Position numbers and translations under genes: made by a program | Sequence record: NC_010105.1 | Length of the DNA stretch: 64,000 nt | Reading direction: 5' to 3' (one strand) | Source: Escherichia phage JS98 | The notes under the pieces: generated by a model | Database searches by the model: none | What the model was told of the DNA's origin: nothing | Seen by the model: the letters and a program-made list of their open reading frames with translations, nothing else | In this document: piece by piece, positions 20,728-61,709 of the stretch | Position numbering within the stretch: the stretch's first letter is position 1 | How the letters are laid out: each line of letters opens with the position of its first letter

Positions 20728-21114
20728 TTATTCTAACGTTAACAAATACTTAGTCTGGTAAAAGACACCAGTGATGTCGTCCAAAGTCGATTGGATGGCC
20801 TTAGGAAGATTTTTGTAGATTTTATCAGACGCTTTAATAAGTTCATCAAGAAAATCTATGGGGTCTTTAGGCAGTTCTGAAGCAGATGGTAGTGATGCTT
20901 TATATTCTTTGCCACTAAATCCTAAATACTGTTCACTGAACTGGTCTAGTGGTCCTTGAACTTCTGTATAATAGAAGTCATATGCTTTGTGTCTTGCATA
21001 GCTTTTGGTTTCCAAATGGGCTGACTTAAAATAGGCTAAAGAAACCAACAGCCAACCAATATAAGAATCTACTTCAGTCCCTCGACTAAGTACGAAATCA
21101 TTGAATTTCATCAT
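20728..21114 (-). CDS. hypothetical protein (128 aa)
   Basis: Intact ORF. Confidence 0.4.
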   Translation of the reverse strand: MMKFNDFVLSRGTEVDSYIGWLLVSLAYFKSAHLETKSYARHKAYDFYYTEVQGPLDQFSEQYLGFSGKEYKASLPSASELPKDPIDFLDELIKASDKIYKNLPKAIQSTLDDITGVFYQTKYLLTLE

Positions 21115-21391: not shown

Positions 21392-21478
21392 ACAAAAGTC
21401 CTTTGTTATTTTATACGAATTTGCCTTTCGGCCTTAACCGATAGCGATTACCAAAAGCTCTACGGTTAGTATTACTAT

Positions 21479-21757
21479 TTATAGCTTTTTAAGCTTACGA
21501 CAATAAGAATAGAACACGTCGTTAAAATTATATTCAACCCAATTCCTCTGTATAGGCGAGGTAATGGAAAGCATATAATGTGCTTTAATTAAATCCATTC
21601 CATTTTTATTAGGGCATTCTTTATTATTAGCATTATACGTCGCTGCTACAACTTCTATCTCTCTTTTGTAAGCCGCATCATCCATGATGGGCGAAAGAAC
21701 AATATAAGAGATGGCCACAGCGAACGCTAGAATTAAAATCTTTGAATTTAGGTCCAT
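21479..21757 (-). CDS. small secreted/periplasmic protein (signal peptide)
   Basis: N-terminal KILILAFAVAISYIVLSPI hydrophobic leader. Confidence 0.4.
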   Translation of the reverse strand: MDLNSKILILAFAVAISYIVLSPIMDDAAYKREIEVVAATYNANNKECPNKNGMDLIKAHYMLSITSPIQRNWVEYNFNDVFYSYCRKLKKL

Positions 21758-26309: not shown

Positions 26310-26609
26310 TTAGAAAGAACCAGAACCTTTAATTGTGTTCTGGCGACCTTTATTTTCCAATTCGGAGTGGTCGATTTCGTATGCTTGGGCTACACCAAAG
26401 GCTTTTTTAACTTTAGCTAAAGAGCCTTTAGATGTAACAATATTAAAAGTATTACCTTTAGTAAAATCAACCAAATCCACTTGTACGCCCTGTTTACCGA
26501 GGCTTGCTACAATAGCATCAACATATTCTTGGTCTAAGGTGCCTTGGACACCTATTTGGAATGCTTTAGGAGCTTTGGCTTCTGTAATAAATTCTTGATA
26601 AGTTTTCAT
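26310..26609 (-). CDS. internal-protein-like (capsid-targeted) protein
   Basis: N-terminal MKTYQEFITEA matches the T4 internal-protein capsid-targeting leader. Confidence 0.5.
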   Translation of the reverse strand: MKTYQEFITEAKAPKAFQIGVQGTLDQEYVDAIVASLGKQGVQVDLVDFTKGNTFNIVTSKGSLAKVKKAFGVAQAYEIDHSELENKGRQNTIKGSGSF

Positions 26610-27124: not shown

Positions 27125-27523
27125 TTATTTGTAAGTTTTCATCCAATTCTTGAACAGAGCTGCAACGTCTTTCTCTTTAACGTTCAATTTAACGTCCAGC
27201 ATTTTGCCACCGGCGGCACGTGTCTGACGAATCTTGGCCGTACCGGTTTCGCCATTCCACTCAACATAATACTGCCCGGTGTTCATAGCGATACCATCGC
27301 CATAGTCTTCGTTCTTAGAAGTAGTGAATGCCAACTTCATGGTCTTAGAGACACGGGCCTGCATGCCTGTCTGCAGAGCGTTACGAACGCGAATAACCTG
27401 AGGAGTGGCCTGGGTTAGGTTCTCGTTCAGTTCTTCGGTGAACTCTTCTGATTCAAACATTGCCAAAAGTTCAGCGGGCGCCGGGATTACAGCTTCGGCG
27501 ATAAATTCATTATAAGTTTTCAT
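27125..27523 (-). CDS. ipII: internal protein II-like
   Basis: MKTYNEFIAEA leader; position between denV and ipIII as in T4. Confidence 0.6.
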   Translation of the reverse strand: MKTYNEFIAEAVIPAPAELLAMFESEEFTEELNENLTQATPQVIRVRNALQTGMQARVSKTMKLAFTTSKNEDYGDGIAMNTGQYYVEWNGETGTAKIRQTRAAGGKMLDVKLNVKEKDVAALFKNWMKTYK

Positions 27524-27563: not shown

Positions 27564-28160
27564 TTAATTACCACGGGCTGCATTAGCAACGGCGTAAGCG
27601 TACTGAATATTAGCGTCTTTAAACGTACCTTTAGAGGTATCTAGTTCTGCCTTAAAGCCGGCCTTAGTCATAACATCGGCAAATTCTTTACGGAAAGCCA
27701 TTGTATCAAGACCTTTCCATGCTGATTTATGCTTGGCAAATTCAAGACCAGCGAAGTTGACTGCTTTAGCCAATTTATTATCAATAGTCCATTTACCTGC
27801 TTTAGGTACAAATACCGGACCTTTCTGTTTAGAGAACAGTTTTAAATTCCAGCGACGAAGGTCGCCGTCGGCTTTAACAAAAGCTGCGTCCAAGTTACTA
27901 GCAACAACATCTTGAATATGGCCAAATTTAAGCCCATCAGCTTCAATATTTAGGTCGTTACGCCAGCGAAGTCCTTCCCAGGCGAAAGCTTTAAAGTCGG
28001 AAGCTTTTGTAGCTAAATACCGTTCAATAGGAGCTGTTTTAGCGTCAAAGCCGTTTCCTGGGTTGTCAACGCCGTTTCCTCGGTAGGTCCACTCATCTTT
28101 ATTAATGCCTTTGACCTTTCCTGCAGTAGCTTCGGCGATAAATTCTTTATACGTTTTCAT
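27564..28160 (-). CDS. ipIII: internal protein III-like
   Basis: MKTYKEFIAEA leader, 198 aa basic protein, position next to e as in T4. Confidence 0.6.
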   Translation of the reverse strand: MKTYKEFIAEATAGKVKGINKDEWTYRGNGVDNPGNGFDAKTAPIERYLATKASDFKAFAWEGLRWRNDLNIEADGLKFGHIQDVVASNLDAAFVKADGDLRRWNLKLFSKQKGPVFVPKAGKWTIDNKLAKAVNFAGLEFAKHKSAWKGLDTMAFRKEFADVMTKAGFKAELDTSKGTFKDANIQYAYAVANAARGN

Positions 28161-28246: not shown

Positions 28247-28735
28247 TTATCTATAAGCAGCCCAAGTACCTGTTTTAAAGGTGGCAATAACACGCTTGGC
28301 ACGATTCGGGGTTTGCTTGTACCAACGAGACTGCGCCAGGTTAACTGCGGCATCATCCCAACGTTTCTGTTGGAGCATACGCAGAGAGTTGGTAAATCCT
28401 GCTACACCAGCTTCGCCCATTTGGAAGACCATATTAATCAATGCGCAACGACGAACTTCGTCCAACACATCATAAACCGGTTTCAATTTAGGATTGCGCA
28501 TTATAGCTCTACGAGCATTTTCCACTGAACGATTAAAGAGCTGTTCAGCTTCAGCCATAGTAATACGACCATTACAAACTCGACCCATAAGCTTATCAAG
28601 TTCAGCGCGAGCAACATCTTTAGATGGGTTCTTGGTAACTAACTGGCCTATACCAATAGTCCAATAACCTTCAGTGTCTTTATAAAGATTTAAATCAAGA
28701 CCTTCGTCTTGACGTAACATATCAAAAATATCCAT
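28247..28735 (-). CDS. e: lysozyme (endolysin) gpe
   Basis: 162 aa; [32 protein letters not shown]...; catalytic Glu11/Asp20 context conserved; colinear with T4 lysozyme. Confidence 0.95.
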
Positions 28736-28758
28736 AATTACCTCCTGATTATAGGAGG

Positions 28759-28766
28759 TATTTATA
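28759..28766 (-). promoter_or_regulatory. late promoter TATAAATA for gene e, inside an RBS-sequestering inverted repeat
   Basis: Minus-strand GATATAAATACCTCCTATAATCAGGAGGTAATTATG; CCTCC...AGGAGG hairpin encloses the RBS. Confidence 0.6.
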
Positions 28767-35887: not shown

Positions 35888-36286
35888 TTATTTCATTTTA
35901 GCGAGGCAGATTTCATTGGCTTCCCATTGAGCTTGCTTAATAATAGCTTTGGATACAGGAACCTTTTGACCATAAGTTTTTGACGTTGAGAGAACAATAT
36001 ATTTGTTTGCCTCATTATGCCAACCTAGTGATTTTTCGCCATGACTACCTTTAACCACAGCTGACACCTCAACAGAGCAACCACCATCAGAAATCTTGGT
36101 TTCTACAATCCATTCATTTCTCTCGGCAGCTTCAATTTCCGATCTCCTTTTTTCTTCATACATGGTGGCCCAATCGGTTTTTGCCAAGTTGAAAGCAAGA
36201 GCTTTCTCTAATTCTTTGGCAGCTTTTTGTTGTTCAGGTGTTAATGAATTATATAACTCTTGCATTTCTTTATCTTCGATATTCAT
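35888..36286 (-). CDS. hypothetical protein (132 aa)
   Basis: Intact ORF. Confidence 0.4.
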
Positions 36287-36343
36287 TATGTTCTCCTCAA
36301 ATTACGGGCTCATAATATCTCAATCATGGGCCCATGTAAACAA

Positions 36344-36607
36344 TTATTTCATATTATTGAAATAATCTTCTGCATTAAAATCGTTATCATGGTAAACTTT
36401 GGTAGACGTTTTGGCGTAGCCTTCAGCTGAGAACATATTAATCACAACTTTAATTGTATACCACTGTCCATCTTCGTTACCCATTACTGCATAGGTTTCA
36501 TACACTGGGTGTTCAGGACCGATAACCTTAATATCGTTAACAGTAGCACCAAATTCTTCAGGAACGCATTTCATAAAGAAATTAAACAATTCACCATAAT
36601 TATCCAT
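36344..36607 (-). CDS. hypothetical protein (about 87 aa)
   Basis: Start at MDNYGELF (ATG 36605-36607) after GAAGGAGAG RBS. Confidence 0.4.
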   Translation of the reverse strand: MDNYGELFNFFMKCVPEEFGATVNDIKVIGPEHPVYETYAVMGNEDGQWYTIKVVINMFSAEGYAKTSTKVYHDNDFNAEDYFNNMK

Positions 36608-36633
36608 TTTACTCTCCTTCACACTGTTGTTTT

Positions 36634-36671
36634 GATAGGTCTATAGTATCATGTTTAAAGGAGGTGTAAAC
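36634..36671 (-). promoter_or_regulatory. conserved early-promoter cassette (PeSL-like)
   Basis: Minus-strand GTTTACACCTCCTTTAAACATGATACTATAGACCTATCAAAACAACAG. Confidence 0.5.
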
Positions 36672-36706
36672 AACTTTGTGAAATTATTTTTAGTTTAAAC
36701 CCCCTA

Positions 36707-36728
36707 AAAGGAGACCAAAGTCTCCTTT
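36707..36728 (-). terminator. rho-independent terminator (AAAGGAGAC-CAAA-GTCTCCTTT palindrome)
   Basis: Hairpin immediately after stop of 36731-37348, followed by TTTAGGGGG on minus strand. Confidence 0.5.
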
Positions 36729-36730
36729 CA

Positions 36731-37348
36731 TTATTTACGGGTCTTTTCGAACTGTGCTGCGTCACCTGCAAGGCGGCGGGCTTGACGAAGTTTGTTATCA
36801 ATTTCTTCGTGCATAGGCTGGGTATACTTAAGGCCTTCAACCGTCAGGTAAAGACGATAGAGGTCCGGGGTATCTAGGTTGTTAATGTGCTGCCCATTAC
36901 GAAGGGCGTTGAATTCTCGAACGAGTTGTTTAGTTTCGGATTCGATTTCAGAAACCAAAGAAGCCAGCTGGTTATATTTTTTAACAATAGTGCTGGTGTC
37001 GAACTTGATTTTAGGTTTAGGAGCTTCTTTTACAGGCTCTGCTTTAGGTGTAGGTTTCGGCGCTGCAACTTTGGTCTGAGCCGCGGGTTTAGAAACAGGA
37101 GCTTTAGCTGGTTTAGCAGGCTTAGTAGAGCCACCGGCTACGATATCTTTAAAAGCTTTGGAAGCTTTGTAATATTCTTTCTGGCTACTAGTATCAAAAC
37201 CATACATATCATAAACGTTTTTAAAGAACTCGGTAGTGGTTTTAGTCCCGGAAATTTTATCATAAGCAGCTTGCCACATATCTTTAGTCATGCGCACGCC
37301 GGCTTCATTCAGAACGCTTTCGTTCAAAAATTCATTGTAAGTTTTCAT
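36731..37348 (-). CDS. internal-protein-like protein (205 aa) with Ala/Pro/Lys-rich linker
   Basis: MKTYNEFLNES capsid-targeting leader; KPAKPAKAPVSKPAAQTK low-complexity segment. Confidence 0.55.
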   Translation of the reverse strand: MKTYNEFLNESVLNEAGVRMTKDMWQAAYDKISGTKTTTEFFKNVYDMYGFDTSSQKEYYKASKAFKDIVAGGSTKPAKPAKAPVSKPAAQTKVAAPKPTPKAEPVKEAPKPKIKFDTSTIVKKYNQLASLVSEIESETKQLVREFNALRNGQHINNLDTPDLYRLYLTVEGLKYTQPMHEEIDNKLRQARRLAGDAAQFEKTRK

Positions 37349-37376
37349 TATTGTTTCCTGTGTTAATTAACTTATC

Positions 37377-37384
37377 TATTTATA
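37377..37384 (-). promoter_or_regulatory. late promoter TATAAATA
   Basis: Minus-strand TATAAATAG about 30 nt upstream of the 36731-37348 ATG. Confidence 0.55.
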
Positions 37385-37385
37385 C

Positions 37386-37412
37386 AAAAAGGCCCAACCT
37401 TTCGGAAGGGCC
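37386..37412 (-). terminator. rho-independent terminator (GGCCC...GGGCC stem followed by T-run)
   Basis: Minus-strand GGCCCTTCCGAAAGGTTGGGCCTTTTTGTATA right after stop of 37418-37972. Confidence 0.6.
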
Positions 37413-37417
37413 GTAAA

Positions 37418-37972
37418 TCAGTTCTTGTAGAACCGGAACGGGTTCACGTGGAAGGCCAACATAGCTTTAGGGATTTTACGAGACAAAAGACTCTTAAGCT
37501 TCCAGCCACAGTACACGCGAAGGTAAAATGTGATTCCGCCGACCTTAAGATAAGGAACTGAAGCAAATACACCCCAGGCGTCATCATTCCACATCCACAA
37601 CCAACCATGGTGAGCTTTATCAGGAGAACCTGATTCTACGTCAGGATTACCACGATAATGGAATTCCGAGCTACAATCACGGCCTAGTTTATGATAAGCA
37701 AAGTTATAAGCTTTATTTCGCCATAGCCAAGCTACTCTCTGGAGATAAACACCACCAGGCATTTTCCTGATTTTAGCCCAACGTTTAATATGACCTTTAT
37801 CGCCGTCAATTGGATTATCGTATGTCATCATCCAATCAAAACCGTATGGCAATTTACCAGTCTTTTTATTATGAAAAGGAACCACAAAAGGCGCAAGGAT
37901 AACGGCTAGAACCATAGAGATAAAATCTAGTGGGACCAACAGAATCCAACTCAAATATTTTAAAAGTTTCAT
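37418..37972 (-). CDS. membrane-anchored Trp-rich protein (184 aa; N-terminal TM helix)
   Basis: N-terminal LKYLSWILLVPLDFISMVLAVILAPFVV; bracketed by two copies of the same promoter/terminator repeat. Confidence 0.5.
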   Translation of the reverse strand: MKLLKYLSWILLVPLDFISMVLAVILAPFVVPFHNKKTGKLPYGFDWMMTYDNPIDGDKGHIKRWAKIRKMPGGVYLQRVAWLWRNKAYNFAYHKLGRDCSSEFHYRGNPDVESGSPDKAHHGWLWMWNDDAWGVFASVPYLKVGGITFYLRVYCGWKLKSLLSRKIPKAMLAFHVNPFRFYKN

Positions 37973-37998
37973 ATTATTTCCTAAGTTAGTTTACTGTA

Positions 37999-38006
37999 TA
38001 TTTATA
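37999..38006 (-). promoter_or_regulatory. late promoter TATAAATA
   Basis: Minus-strand TATAAATATACAGTAAACTAACTTAGGAAATAATATG upstream of 37418-37972. Confidence 0.55.
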
Positions 38007-38035
38007 CAAAAAAGGCCCAACCTTTCGGAAGGGCC
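38007..38035 (-). terminator. rho-independent terminator closing the tRNA/small-RNA transcription unit
   Basis: Same GGCCCTTCCGAAAGGTTGGGCC hairpin plus T-run as at 37386-37412. Confidence 0.6.
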
Positions 38036-38040
38036 TTTAA

Positions 38041-38205
38041 CCTAGGGTAACCTTGTCGGGGTTCCACCTGCTAGGCAAGTGTTCTGTGCGCCGTTTCAGC
38101 TGTGAGATAAGGGACTTTAAGAGGAACTCATGTACTCCTTAAAGTCGGGTCTTATTCAGGGAACTTCAGTCCGACGACTTACCGGTAGCGACCCGGTTTC
38201 TTGTT
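38041..38205 (-). ncRNA. candidate structured small RNA downstream of the tRNA cluster
   Basis: Non-coding interval between tRNA-Arg and the terminator with a 9-bp inverted repeat (GACTTTAAG...CTTAAAGTC); no cloverleaf found. Confidence 0.25.
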
Positions 38206-38281
38206 TGGTCGAGACAGTAGGGATCGAACCTACGACCTACGGTTTAGAAGACCGTTGCTCTTCCTTCTGAGCTATGCCTCG
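38206..38281 (-). tRNA. tRNA-Arg (anticodon UCU)
   Basis: Hand-folded cloverleaf: acceptor CGAGGCA/TGTCTCG, D-arm GCTC..GAGC, anticodon loop CTTCTAA, T-arm GTAGG-TTCGATC-CCTAC, encoded CCA. Confidence 0.7.
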
Positions 38282-38285
38282 TATT

Positions 38286-38360
38286 TGGCGGACATGCATG
38301 GATTCGAACCATGGACCAATTGATTAACAGTCAACTGCTCTACCGCTGAGCTACACATCC
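38286..38360 (-). tRNA. tRNA-Asn (anticodon GUU)
   Basis: Hand-folded: acceptor GGATGTG/CATGTCC (two G-U pairs), D-arm GCTC..GAGC, anticodon loop CTGTTAA, T-arm CATGG-TTCGAAT-CCATG, encoded CCA. Confidence 0.65.
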
Positions 38361-38364
38361 AAAT

Positions 38365-38438
38365 TGGTGGCCCTGGGTGGAATCGAACCACCATCCAGCG
38401 ATTATGAGTCGCTCGCTTGACCGTCCAGCTACAGGGCC
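38365..38438 (-). tRNA. tRNA with CAU anticodon (Ile-lysidine type or Met)
   Basis: Hand-folded: acceptor GGCCCTG/CAGGGCC, anticodon stem AGCGA/TCGCT with loop CTCATAA, T-arm GGTGG-TTCGATT-CCACC, encoded CCA; short D-stem. Confidence 0.6.
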
Positions 38439-38443
38439 TTAAT

Positions 38444-38716
38444 TTAAATTACAAATCCAGCAGGAGCATTATCGTCTTTAGCCATGTGCTGAATTGTATG
38501 ATAAGTCATTTCTTCAGGAGCAACCAGATAAGCCGCAGCATTAACTAGTGGAATTATTTTTGGTTTAGCGAATGTGCTATCGGCAATTGCCATAAAGGGC
38601 TCGCCGTCGGTCTCAACTTCGCCAAATTGGCATTCATATGAAATAGAACAACGTTTAGTAGTTGTTGTCTTGGTTTCTGGGTCATAAAAAGCTAATTTTA
38701 ATACTAACATAAACAC
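38444..38716 (-). CDS. hypothetical protein (90 aa)
   Basis: Intact ORF just upstream of tRNAs. Confidence 0.4.
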   Translation of the reverse strand: MFMLVLKLAFYDPETKTTTTKRCSISYECQFGEVETDGEPFMAIADSTFAKPKIIPLVNAAAYLVAPEEMTYHTIQHMAKDDNAPAGFVI

Positions 38717-38839
38717 CTCAAATAAAATTAAGTAAAGTAAGTTTGATTAATAGACCTTGTCTATTATGAAAGGCTCTTTGAGGGAAGAACCTTTGGTAAT
38801 AGAGGGTATTAATGATAGAGTAATAATATCACATAATTC

Positions 38840-39325
38840 TTAAAGCATATCAAGTGCTTTCACATCAGGGATTTTAATTTCTTCTTCAATAATATACAGC
38901 TTAACGTAAGAAATTACACGGATGAAATCACCATCATATTCACAAGCCATACCAAGGAGCTCAGTAAGGGCTTCATTCAAGTAGTATTCTTCTTCGTCAT
39001 CGTTCAGCAAGGCTTCTAAGTCTTGGATACCGAGGACTTTATCTAAAAATTCAGGAGTCAATTGGCCTGATTTTACACCAGATTCAATGTGGGCAATAAC
39101 CAGATGCTTAACTACGTCCCATTCCGAATTACCACATTTATCCGGGTTGTTGCAATGAGAACCATGGAAAAGTTCTAGGATATATTTGTACTGTTGGATT
39201 TCATGTTCTTCTACGCCAAATACAGTCTGGGTTTTATAGTTATCGCCATCATTTTCCCAGGTTTCAATTTCAATTGCATAACCTTTAGGGATAATTTGTC
39301 CGAATTTAATATTCATTGTGGCCAC
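38840..39325 (-). CDS. hypothetical acidic protein (161 aa)
   Basis: Intact ORF. Confidence 0.45.
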   Translation of the reverse strand: MATMNIKFGQIIPKGYAIEIETWENDGDNYKTQTVFGVEEHEIQQYKYILELFHGSHCNNPDKCGNSEWDVVKHLVIAHIESGVKSGQLTPEFLDKVLGIQDLEALLNDDEEEYYLNEALTELLGMACEYDGDFIRVISYVKLYIIEEEIKIPDVKALDML

Positions 39326-39603
39326 ATATTAATGTAATCAAGTTTAATAGAAGCAATTTTCAAAGGATTTTTAAAGATGTCATATTCGACCAACCCATTT
39401 TCATTTGCCGTATAAAAAGTAAAGTTAACAGAATTATAGCGTTGGCTGTTAACTTTGAGTTTAACATCGCTTGAACTACGGCCAATATTAACCTGTTGAA
39501 CATCAAGCACAGCATCTTTGCCGTAATTTCGAATCAACAACTCAGCTGCAACCTGATCGGATTTATAGCCATTCTCTGGATTAGTAACCTTAACGTATAA
39601 CAT
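39313..39603 (-). CDS. hypothetical protein (96 aa)
   Basis: Intact ORF. Confidence 0.4.
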   Translation of the reverse strand: MLYVKVTNPENGYKSDQVAAELLIRNYGKDAVLDVQQVNIGRSSSDVKLKVNSQRYNSVNFTFYTANENGLVEYDIFKNPLKIASIKLDYINMWPQ

Positions 39604-40005
39604 TTAACCCTCGTCTACAATAGTGTGGGTATTGGCATTAACAATCTGCCACCAGCCAAAACGATTAGAACCGTAAAGAGGCTTATTCTCGTTTTCTTTA
39701 ATGATATCGCGCAGTTCATCTTCAGAGAAGGCTTTAGCGATTAAATCAGTATACCCACCGCGTGGATAATAATTATCACCCGCAAACAAAAGGAAATTTA
39801 CCTTTCCGGAAGGAACATATGCTTCCTTAGGATACTTGTTTCCTGCGTGGTCGACAACTTCAATATAACGGTAAGGAATATCAGTACTTTCAACCCATTG
39901 CCATGCTGCTGCAGGGGATTCAAAAGCATCAACACCTAAACGATTATCTTCATCTTTAGACGGATTATTTTCGTAATCCGCATATACATAATATTCAACG
40001 TTCAT
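39604..40005 (-). CDS. hypothetical protein (133 aa)
   Basis: Intact ORF. Confidence 0.45.
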   Translation of the reverse strand: MNVEYYVYADYENNPSKDEDNRLGVDAFESPAAAWQWVESTDIPYRYIEVVDHAGNKYPKEAYVPSGKVNFLLFAGDNYYPRGGYTDLIAKAFSEDELRDIIKENENKPLYGSNRFGWWQIVNANTHTIVDEG

Positions 40006-40259: not shown

Positions 40260-40553
40260 TTATTTTGTAATTTCTTTGATTTTAGAAACTACTTTATCTT
40301 TGGTAAGACCGGAAAAAGTCTTATATTTTGTAAAGTGGATATCATCACCAAGATTAATATAATATTTCTTTTTAACCGTATTGAATGCTATACTAACAGG
40401 TTTACCATTTACTGTAATAGTAATTTGCTGAGCCTTATCAACATCACCTGAGCCAAAGGCTCTTTTAATATCGCTACTAATATCGGCCATAGCCGCTTTG
40501 TTAATGGAATACAAATCTGTCGATTCTTTGATAAATTCTTGATAAGTTTTCAT
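40260..40553 (-). CDS. ipI: internal protein I-like
   Basis: MKTYQEFIKES capsid-targeting leader, 97 aa, located next to 57B as ipI is in T4. Confidence 0.55.
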   Translation of the reverse strand: MKTYQEFIKESTDLYSINKAAMADISSDIKRAFGSGDVDKAQQITITVNGKPVSIAFNTVKKKYYINLGDDIHFTKYKTFSGLTKDKVVSKIKEITK

Positions 40554-44238: not shown

Positions 44239-44246
44239 TATAAATA
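44239..44246 (+). promoter_or_regulatory. late promoter TATAAATA for gene 53
   Basis: TATAAATA about 28 nt upstream of gene 53 ATG. Confidence 0.6.
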
Positions 44247-60719: not shown

Positions 60720-60720
60720 T

Positions 60721-60742
60721 AAAAGGGCTTCGGCCCTTTTTT
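60721..60742 (+). terminator. rho-independent terminator after wac
   Basis: AAAAGGGC-TTCG-GCCCTTTT hairpin plus T-run. Confidence 0.65.
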
Positions 60743-60744
60743 GC

Positions 60745-60752
60745 TATAAATA
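60745..60752 (+). promoter_or_regulatory. late promoter TATAAATA for gene 13
   Basis: TATAAATA about 22 nt upstream of gene 13 ATG. Confidence 0.6.
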
Positions 60753-60773: not shown

Positions 60774-61709
60774 ATGGCAAGTGAATCATATAACCCTAAG
60801 CAACTCAAGGACGCTATTCTGCGCCGCCTGGGTGCACCGATTACAAATATTGAAGTAACTACTGACCAAGTATATGATTGCATCCAGAGGGCTCTAGAGC
60901 TCTACGGCGAATACCATTATAACGGGTATAACAAAGGTTATCAGGCTTTTTATATCGGCCATGACGATGAAGAAAAATTCCGTAATGGCGTATTCGACCT
61001 TAAAGGACGTAATATATTTGCAGTAACACAAATTTTGAGAACTAATGTAGGTTCTTTAACATCTATGGACGGGCAAGCAACTTATCCATGGTTTACAGAT
61101 TTTGTACTAGGTTTGGCAGGTATTAATGGTGGTCTTGGGTCTTCATGTAACAGCTTTGGACCTAATGCCTTCGGCGCTGACCTTGGTTATTTTACACAAT
61201 TAATGCAATATCGTTCTATGATGCAGGACCTTTTGGTTCCACTGCCTGATTATTGGTATAATGATGCCACTGAACAATTGAAGGTAATGGGCAACTTTGT
61301 TAAAGGCGACTTTATTGTAATTGAAGTTTATACCCGTTCATTTAATGGCGTTGATTCCATGGTCGGGAATACAGCAGGATATGGATACGCTTCCGGTGGC
61401 TGTGACGAAAATGAATGGAGTCCTGGGGCTATTTGGGACAATCCTGCACGTCGAATTTCAGGAATGAGAGCTGGTGAGGACCTTGGACTACAAGATGGTG
61501 CGTATAATAACCGTTGGGTCAAAGATTACGCTACGGCATTAGTTAAAGAGGTCAATGGTAATATTTTAGCCAAACACCAAGGTATGCAATTAGCTGGCGG
61601 AACCACTGTAGATGGCATTCGATTGATTGAAGAAGCTCGTTTAGAAAAAGAACGTCTTCGCGAAGAATTAGATTTGCTCGACCCACCAACACCTATTTTA
61701 ATTGGATAA
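60774..61709 (+). CDS. 13: neck protein gp13
   Basis: 311 aa, order and size as T4 gp13. Confidence 0.85.

Follow-up and report, generated by a model that had tools for sequence, protein, structure and literature searches.

We analysed a 64,000-nucleotide (nt) stretch of Escherichia phage JS98 (NC_010105.1), hereafter the window, and in particular a short direct repeat at positions 37377-38035 that brackets a gene of the DUF7338 family. Over this region the identity to Escherichia phage UP19 (Dhakavirus, Tevenvirinae) is 99.1%, and the counterpart in phage T4 is the interval from the tRNA cluster to genes e.8-e.1. All genes of the region lie on the minus strand, and in the direction of transcription the locus reads as follows, with the evidence in brackets:

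38206..38281, minus strand: tRNA-Arg(tct), the last of a Met-Asn-Arg cluster and part of the upstream unit (ARAGORN; Rfam tRNA, 69 bits)
38040..38205, minus strand: rnaD (species 2 RNA) homolog with a conserved 3' trailer (alignment to T4 rnaD and the post-rnaC trailer)
38014..38035, minus strand: hairpin copy 2, putative ancestral intrinsic terminator of the tRNA-rnaD unit (RNA fold, T4 counterpart, conservation)
38007..38013, minus strand: U-run UUUUUUG of putative terminator copy 2 (sequence reading)
37999..38006, minus strand: TATAAATA, predicted T4-type late promoter of the DUF7338 gene, 26 nt before its ATG (motif, position, conservation)
37418..37972, minus strand: DUF7338 accessory gene, 184 amino acids (aa), phrog_2143 (Pfam, PHROG, AlphaFold2)
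37391..37412, minus strand: hairpin copy 1, putative terminator of the DUF7338 unit and second recombination arm (RNA fold; identity to copy 2; homology breaks)
37385..37390, minus strand: U-run UUUUUG of putative terminator copy 1 (sequence reading)
37377..37384, minus strand: TATAAATA, predicted late promoter of the internal-protein-like gene (motif position; it follows the tRNA-rnaD terminator in phages without the DUF7338 gene)
36731..37348, minus strand: 205-aa gene (phrog_2280), product starting MKTYNEFLNE (match to the T4 capsid-targeting sequence)
36707..36728, minus strand: hairpin AAAGGAGAC-UUUG-GUCUCCUUU closing the unit of the 205-aa gene (fold -15.2 kcal/mol, z -4.2)
36643..36670, minus strand: predicted sigma-70/T4-early-type promoter TTTACA-16-TACTAT with TG, leading into an e.8-like gene (promoter scan; e.8 in T4 has an equivalent)

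The repeat, TATTTATACAAAAA(A)GGCCCAACCTTTCGGAAGGGCC, is 36-37 bases long and occurs exactly twice, at 37377-37412 and at 37999-38035. Copy 1 reads TATTTATACAAAAAGGCCCAACCTTTCGGAAGGGCC and copy 2 reads TATTTATACAAAAAAGGCCCAACCTTTCGGAAGGGCC, the extra A being present in copy 2 only, and the repeat search gave a spacing of 623 bp between the copies. The 22-nt hairpin core GGCCCAACCTTTCGGAAGGGCC has exactly two sites in the 64 kb even when 3 mismatches are tolerated, and its absence from all of 100 dinucleotide shuffles (0/100) rules out a chance repeat. A sequence-only reading of the locus had described each copy as a hairpin, a U-run and TATAAATA on the transcribed strand, with a single gene between the copies; direct reading and RNA folding confirm the first statement and the list of ORFs (open reading frames) the second. 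The bracketed gene (37418-37972, minus strand) is the only substantial ORF between the copies and encodes a protein of 184 aa, 10 of which are Trp (5.4%).

The minus-strand RNA of each copy reads GGCCC-UU-CC-GAAA-GG-UU-GGGCC, followed by five or six U residues, a G and UAUAAAUA. The fold energies, set against shuffled sequences, are -15.3 kcal/mol (z -2.5) for copy 1 and -19.9 kcal/mol (z -4.0) for copy 2. Among related loci, stem position 2 covaries with its partner (GGCCC/GGGCC versus GCCCC/GGGGC), and in copy 1 of phage AnYang the outer stem pair is gone from both arms together. When the copies were examined as intrinsic terminators, a G+C-rich hairpin was found to abut the U5-6 run directly, and we infer that transcription terminates at these hairpins.

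The motif TATAAATA occurs 7 times in the window against 7.4 expected by chance, so its abundance was dropped as evidence for a promoter, and position and conservation were relied on instead. Six of the 7 sites lie 15-30 nt upstream of a same-strand ATG with a Shine-Dalgarno (SD) sequence; the positions are non-random although the count is random. Both copies of the repeat share the order hairpin, U-run, TATAAATA, a 26-28-nt leader with an SD sequence and then the ATG. Dhakavirus and Mosigvirus both keep TATAAATA and the leader motif GTAAACTAA before the DUF7338 gene, and a Gelderlandvirus has AATAAATA (A-TAAATA) in place of TATAAATA; the T4 late-promoter consensus covers -13 to -6 and is variable at -13 (PMC1524935). 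The promoter scan found no sigma-70 or Mot-box promoter inside the 58-nt spacer, and the most sigma-70-like stretch of the module, TATACA-16-AATAAT, matches weakly (9/12). The arrangement expected of a T4-type late promoter, TATAAATA close upstream of a same-strand gene, is thus present, late expression of the DUF7338 gene is a well-supported prediction, and we infer that TATAAATA fires late.

The remaining sites of this motif have surroundings of their own. A divergent pair at 44239 and 44254 flanks two oppositely oriented genes, and another site precedes an e-lysozyme-like gene (28247-28735, minus strand), where it is followed at 28735-28766 (minus strand) by CCTCC-TATAATC-AGGAGG, a hairpin that would sequester the ribosome-binding site of transcripts started further upstream. 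T4 gene e has a similar hairpin sequestering its ribosome-binding site. At 60720-60752 on the plus strand, an unrelated parallel combines the hairpin GGGCTTCGGCCC with TTTTTTGC and then TATAAATA at 60745; ORF 60774-61709, which belongs to the plus-strand block of long ORFs at the window end, has its ATG 21 nt further on. The site at 21476-21483 (minus strand) is the sole one in the window without a start codon within ~50 nt downstream, and the nearest minus-strand ORF of at least 100 aa after it (20728-21114) starts more than 350 nt away.

Taken as a whole, the repeat is best explained as a composite regulatory element in which an intrinsic terminator hairpin with its U-run abuts a T4-type late promoter, and we consider this reading probable. 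Two points count against its terminator half. The consensus terminator scan flagged neither copy, because the 2x2 U.U internal loop violates its stem rule, and the conservation of this U.U/U.U loop could mean that the hairpins are leaky or have another function. A different account gives the hairpin its chief role in RNA processing or stability, for instance as a 3' stabiliser or as a nuclease site or protein-binding site in which the U.U mismatches are conserved, and has the DUF7338 gene expressed mostly by transcripts that read through from the strong tRNA promoters and not from TATAAATA. Besides the silence of the terminator scan, it can draw on the retention of the UU/UU loop in nearly all copies, although the stem is perfect in T4 and in the Mosigvirus 3' copy, and on RB43 and Miro, where the DUF7338 gene is preceded by a hairpin but not by TATAAATA. 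Against it, a U-run follows every copy of the hairpin, the spacing from TATAAATA to the ATG is constant in Dhakavirus and Mosigvirus, with A-TAAATA in Gelderlandvirus, and the same architecture stands before the plus-strand gene at 60745; we regard this account as very unlikely.

Upstream of the repeat, tRNA-Arg is separated from copy 2 by 166 nt that can be aligned with T4 rnaD at both ends and then with the T4 post-rnaC trailer. The rnaD homolog (38040-38205) is conserved at its 5' and 3' ends and variable in its centre, and the alignment to T4 shows that rnaC is absent here. An Rfam scan of positions 36000-40000 returned tRNAs only, with no match for the hairpin or for rnaD, and Rfam has no family for rnaD or rnaC. 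In T4 the post-rnaC trailer is followed by GCCCCGACCGAAAGGTTGGGGC and TTTTT, and a hairpin downstream of the trailer is kept in every related locus examined. Because T4 carries a hairpin of this design in the corresponding place, copy 2 is, on this comparison, the ancestral terminator of the tRNA/stable-RNA unit and no novelty of this phage. The description of the locus as a duplicated module therefore holds as far as there are two copies, while copy 2 is itself the terminator of the tRNA-rnaD unit that T4 also has.

On the other side, the late promoter of copy 1 is present as the sequence-only reading had it, and its role can be refined, since it would serve the next gene, whose product resembles an internal head protein. 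The product of ORF 36731-37348 begins MKTYNEFLNESVLNE and matches 7 of 10 positions of the capsid-targeting sequence (CTS; for the concept see PMC3012670), with LNE, which fits the L-x-E cleavage motif, occurring twice; T4 internal proteins IPII and IPIII start MKTYQEFIAE, compared with MKTYNEFLNE here. Variants at the same position in other phages retain the leader and the CTS, and their bodies are only 26-31% identical; a hypervariable body behind a constant CTS would be typical of internal proteins. The product is thus probably a polymorphic internal (ejected or packaged) head protein, and given the CTS and the hypervariable body, the late promoter of copy 1 would belong to a probable late, packaged protein. 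In PADLOC and NCBIfam the 205-aa protein gave only a weak, sub-threshold TonB match. Four further ORFs of the window have a MKTY(Q/N/K)EF(I/L) start (40260-40553, 27564-28160, 27125-27523 and 26310-26609, all on the minus strand), and 36731-37348 stands apart from them, next to the tRNA/rnaD region. The inverted repeat at 36707-36728, behind this gene, was detected by the terminator scan but called on the plus strand.

The sequence-only reading had taken the repeats to flank an exchangeable cassette, and a comparison of relatives for its presence or absence bears this out, as the alleles break at the repeats in both Dhakavirus and Mosigvirus. In CLB_P2 and C6, whose sequences were read directly, there is no DUF7338 gene, and the one module present has the flank of copy 1 on its left and that of copy 2 on its right; such a single hybrid copy is the product expected of recombination between the repeats. 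Coverage and junction BLAST point to the same empty arrangement in IME08, dhaeg, dhabil, SHP1 and ESCO10. Across the junction BLAST, about 19 distinct phages are filled and about 8 empty, the latter count including vB_EcoM_005, where the gene is still present at a second position; since the leaders are ~91% alike over 130 nt, BLAST coverage did not separate the alleles, and identity bands were used. In the empty phages the late promoter and leader of the internal-protein-like gene directly follow the tRNA-rnaD terminator. In JS10, IME540, QL01 and MX01 homology to the window stops exactly at the copy 1 hairpin (query position 687), and JS10 has an early promoter behind the hairpin in place of the late one, an arrangement that is an early promoter stem-loop (PeSL) proper. 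A scripted map of the related loci shows nine gene arrangements downstream of the tRNA-rnaD terminator. In vB_EcoM_005 and L026 the two genes come in reverse order, and L031 (IME341) carries the last ~50 nt of the DUF7338 gene and the 3' hairpin behind a 154-aa variant of the internal protein. L019 and L020 supply a further pair of filled and empty alleles.

A second locus shows the same polymorphism. In Mosigvirus (ECO111 5-P, LF82-5) a 74-75% identical DUF7338 gene directly follows the lysis-inhibition gene rI, with GCCCCTTCCGAAAGGTTGGGGC-TTTTTG-TATAAATA before it and GCCCCAACCGAAAGGTTGGGGC-TTTTTT after it. Here L008 and L011 are filled, and the IMG/VR genome L012 is empty with one hairpin, its flanks being 93-99% identical to the filled alleles over 300 nt on each side. 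In related Dhakavirus genomes, outside the window, the hairpin recurs in a third, identical copy, which is flanked by convergent genes on the uvsW.1 side. It was located at 4734-4755 of L028 and also in L014, L018, L022, L025 and L030; its neighbours on one strand are uvsW.1-like and helicase-like genes, and on the other strand a 232-aa ORF that by eye is like a seg-type homing endonuclease ends ~225 nt upstream of the hairpin.

The best explanation of these alleles is a late transcription unit inserted and deleted by recombination at a terminator repeat, which we hold with reasonable though not full confidence. The filled locus would be laid out as the tRNAs and rnaD, a terminator, the late promoter, leader and DUF7338 ORF, a terminator, the late promoter and internal-protein-like ORF, a terminator, and the early promoter with e.8 and what follows, that is, as two monocistronic late units, each insulated, with prereplicative units on either side. 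Copy 2 would be the resident terminator, and copy 1 a second copy at the 3' end of the inserted accessory gene. Homologous recombination between the direct repeats would delete the cassette, or insert it via a circular intermediate or in a phage cross, leaving one hybrid copy. As the same hairpin would act as terminator at other genomic sites, the cassette could land elsewhere, as after rI in Mosigvirus. Recombination, beyond selection alone, would then lie behind the filled/empty polymorphism.

Several observations weigh against this explanation. In the L019/L020 pair, the third with filled and empty alleles, the 3' hairpin of L019 differs in sequence, only GGGCTTTTTTATA (~13 nt) is common at the junction, and the hairpin was not used. 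The end-point of the deletion in L017 lies inside the 205-aa gene and not at the hairpin. The remnant in L031, ~600-700 nt downstream of the rnaD trailer, reads as the scar of an older, repeat-independent deletion. The G+C content of the cassette is 0.37-0.44, as against 0.34-0.45 in neighbouring genes; a foreign origin by composition was rejected accordingly, and of the moron-like cassette proposed by the sequence-only reading there remains a unit of promoter, gene and terminator between genes that are adjacent in relatives, whose G+C content is not distinct. Finally, the DUF7338 gene occurs without the repeat in many phages. The sequence-only reading had named relatives with the gene and no flanking repeats as evidence against it, and such cases exist in RB43, Miro, Felixounavirus and prophages, beside the other 3' hairpin of L019. 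The repeat is an apparent lineage-specific vehicle and no part of the DUF7338 gene family.

Rearrangements that end away from the hairpin also suit an account in which the repeats are only reused terminators, and the shuffling is driven by double-strand breaks from homing endonucleases of the SegB type, with co-conversion tracts ending in conserved sequence. A homing endonuclease gene does lie in the tRNA region of AnYang, IME540 and T4 (segB), a seg-like ORF adjoins the third hairpin copy, and homing endonucleases appear as a parallel source of plasticity in Comeau 2014 (PMC4122927). The tRNA cluster of the window, however, has no endonuclease gene by the ORF list and the tRNA scan, the exact junctions with a single hybrid copy recur at two unlinked loci, and the rI locus is far from tRNA genes. 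As a replacement for recombination at the terminator repeat we think this account unlikely; the two mechanisms are not mutually exclusive, and a contribution of homing endonucleases to the shuffling is plausible.

The product of the cassette gene belongs to Pfam DUF7338 (PF24027; E=4.6e-63, 212.6 bits against a cut-off of 27, residues 1-183 of 184), which all 32 aligned homologs also match, and to phrog_2143 (E=1e-79); both families are without an assigned function. Homologs occur in 591 phage records, from Dhakavirus, Mosigvirus, Gelderlandvirus, RB43-like phages, Slopekvirus, Felixounavirus, Pseudomonas and Aeromonas phages and jumbo phages, and an exhaustive profile search gave 852 family clusters, nearly all of them stand-alone proteins of 165-200 aa. 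The (near-)invariant motifs T-x-D-N-P-x-x-G-D-x-G-H-x-x-R-W, W-L-W-R-N-x-x-Y and R-x-Y-x-G-W-K suggest a binding or catalytic site; D52, H61, R85, N86, R152 and K158 are among the invariant residues. Residues 9-33 form a very hydrophobic N-terminal segment, and the charges flanking this helix in the 32 homologs (+88/-2 on the N side, +51/-41 on the C side) favour an N-in, C-out topology. In the AlphaFold2 model (predicted local distance difference test, pLDDT, 95.9; predicted template-modelling score, pTM, 0.84), the hydrophobic N-terminal helix is packed on a beta-sheet within an alpha/beta domain, and with so high a pTM it is possible that helix 9-33 is a buried core helix. The N-terminal transmembrane (TM) anchor of the sequence-only reading thus stays plausible by hydrophobicity, although AlphaFold packs the helix against the sheet, and the protein is predicted to be membrane-anchored or membrane-associated via this helix, with its domain facing the periplasm.

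Database searches gave few leads to its function. The best Foldseek match in PDB (E=0.19) was to FabZ hot-dog folds with TM-scores of 0.12-0.17, which are meaningless, the best PDB sequence-profile match had E=0.99, and matches in BFVD were family members only. Pfam, NCBIfam and PADLOC returned DUF7338 only or nothing, these searches showed no similarity in sequence or in fold to Imm, Sp, holin T or another known protein, and the literature search found "DUF7338" in no paper. Distant family members mostly lie on metagenomic sequences too short to inform; the contexts read include four prophages (L035, L043, L044 and L047). In those of Chitinivorax and Aquitalea the DUF7338 gene follows a tail fibre and one further gene, which only in Chitinivorax is a tail-fibre assembly chaperone by Pfam; it lies at the prophage end in Chitinivorax and adjoins a Dam methylase in Aquitalea. 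In the Ruegeria prophage it comes after a GPD-type tail gene and is followed closely by a Dam methylase, and in the Paludibacterium prophage it stands between the tail-fibre genes and a holin-like/lysozyme/Rz cassette, with two terminator-like hairpins before the cassette. Three of these four prophages thus have the gene where the tail module ends, and in two a D12-class Dam methyltransferase stands beside it. Among lytic phages, it is embedded between tRNA sub-clusters in Felixounavirus (L010, L048), stands directly after tRNA-Arg in Dhakavirus and Gelderlandvirus (L007) and lies ~1 kb from tRNA-Met in RB43 and Miro (L006, L009). This recurrence beside tRNA genes in unrelated phage groups may reflect the plasticity of tRNA regions only, or transfer mediated by tRNA homology.

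A role in superinfection exclusion or lysis timing, as the sequence-only reading had suggested, is speculation. The T4 exclusion genes imm and sp are early genes, so a purely late promoter fits poorly with exclusion. As for lysis, the protein could be holin-like or antiholin-like and the cassette a lysis-timing module. Three phage records (Felixounavirus) carry the label "holin", and the protein's outline, one hydrophobic N-terminal helix and a domain of ~150 aa, recalls T4 holin T, which has a single N-terminal helix followed by a domain. The gene also adjoins rI in Mosigvirus and stands immediately upstream of the holin-lysozyme-Rz cassette in the Paludibacterium prophage. We traced the label and found no experimental basis for it in the literature examined; in the Felix O1 genome paper the holin candidates are other proteins, and no experiment on the DUF7338 protein is given. 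There is, moreover, no holin family match in Pfam and no fold match in PDB, the Paludibacterium prophage has a separate small TM protein at the holin position with two terminators between, and the gene is dispensable in close relatives, so that a lysis protein seems very improbable. The contexts fit a dispensable, envelope-directed accessory function without identifying it, and an accessory envelope-directed function late in infection is the most likely, if weakly supported, assignment. A bolder proposal, which we find hard to credit, would have a self-mobilising late-promoter stem-loop cassette hop among dispersed copies of one terminator hairpin, inside T-even genera and from one to another (the tRNA-rnaD locus in Dhakavirus, the rI locus in Mosigvirus), with a new-fold, envelope-facing protein for late protection of the cell or the progeny; if true, this could work by blocking late superinfection or masking the receptor, and would explain the prophage position after tail fibres. 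Large, confidently modelled, structurally unmatched in PDB and recurrent at accessory positions in lytic phages and prophages, DUF7338 deserves to be flagged for functional work.

Parts of the locus have close counterparts in known systems. Like copy 2, the terminator of the T4 tRNA/rnaD/rnaC unit consists of the trailer with GGTGGAACCCCGACAAGG, then a CCGAAAGG hairpin with a G/C clamp and lastly a T-run; its stem is unbroken (GA/TT), and after it come ~200 nt and the early promoter of e.8, whereas the hairpin here has the U.U/U.U internal loop, is duplicated, and abuts a late promoter in each copy. The 205-aa gene shares with T4 IPI, IPII and IPIII the CTS at the N-terminus, the late promoter and a body that is hypervariable among close relatives (PMC3012670), and differs in its place by the tRNA/rnaD region and in a PHROG family listed without function. 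The cassette also resembles the morons of lambdoid phages (PMC2839356, PMC1524935), as one gene with its own predicted promoter and terminator between genes that are adjacent in relatives. DUF7338 family members also sit at accessory prophage positions after tail-fibre genes, as morons do, and both L019 and the Paludibacterium prophage have terminator hairpins behind the gene. Unlike morons, the cassette has ordinary G+C content, conserved flanks that serve as its apparent mobility vehicle and a lytic late promoter, and is not prophage-expressed. Nolan 2006 reported that accessory ORFs of T4-like phages are co-expressed with early genes, that late promoters stand exclusively before conserved late genes, and that the novel ORFs are "not moronic" (PMC1524935); the cassette is an exception to this late-promoter rule and agrees with "not moronic" in its ordinary G+C content.

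The closest relatives of the element are the early and middle promoter stem-loops (PeSLs and PmSLs) described in T4-like phages (PMC2839356; PMC4122927). As in these, a short conserved stem-loop with a promoter element lies between genes in a hyperplastic region, copies flank an accessory ORF that close relatives have or lack, a single hybrid remains at the empty site, and the stem-loop stands just upstream of the promoter, as in the PeSLs of PST and T4. The promoter of PeSLs and PmSLs is sigma-70-like early or MotA middle, whereas here it is the gp55-type late TATAAATA, the repeat is ~37 nt against ~100 nt in PeSLs, and the upstream copy, unlike PeSLs, also serves an RNA-gene operon as its terminator. 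For PeSLs, mini-circles and promoter and terminator activity have been demonstrated. No sigma-70-like early promoter of the PeSL kind was found, only TATAAATA; because the promoter is late and not early, we call the element a PeSL variant and not a member. The PeSL papers seem to know no late version, as "late promoter" is absent from PMC2839356 and was not found in the accessible part of PMC4122927, and the sole paper in our literature search with both "PeSL" and "late promoter" merely cites the PeSL work. The element is, judged by its layout, a late-promoter analogue of PeSL/PmSL built on an ordinary operon terminator. For the specialist this would be a tidy extension of known elements, and its practical value is modest, consisting of better annotation of Dhakavirus and Mosigvirus therapy candidates and a natural late-expressed insertion site for engineering. 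It would nevertheless provide a compact, testable example, with natural alleles at two unlinked loci, of the PeSL mechanism reaching beyond early and middle promoters to late ones, and of how a common operon terminator can become a landing pad.

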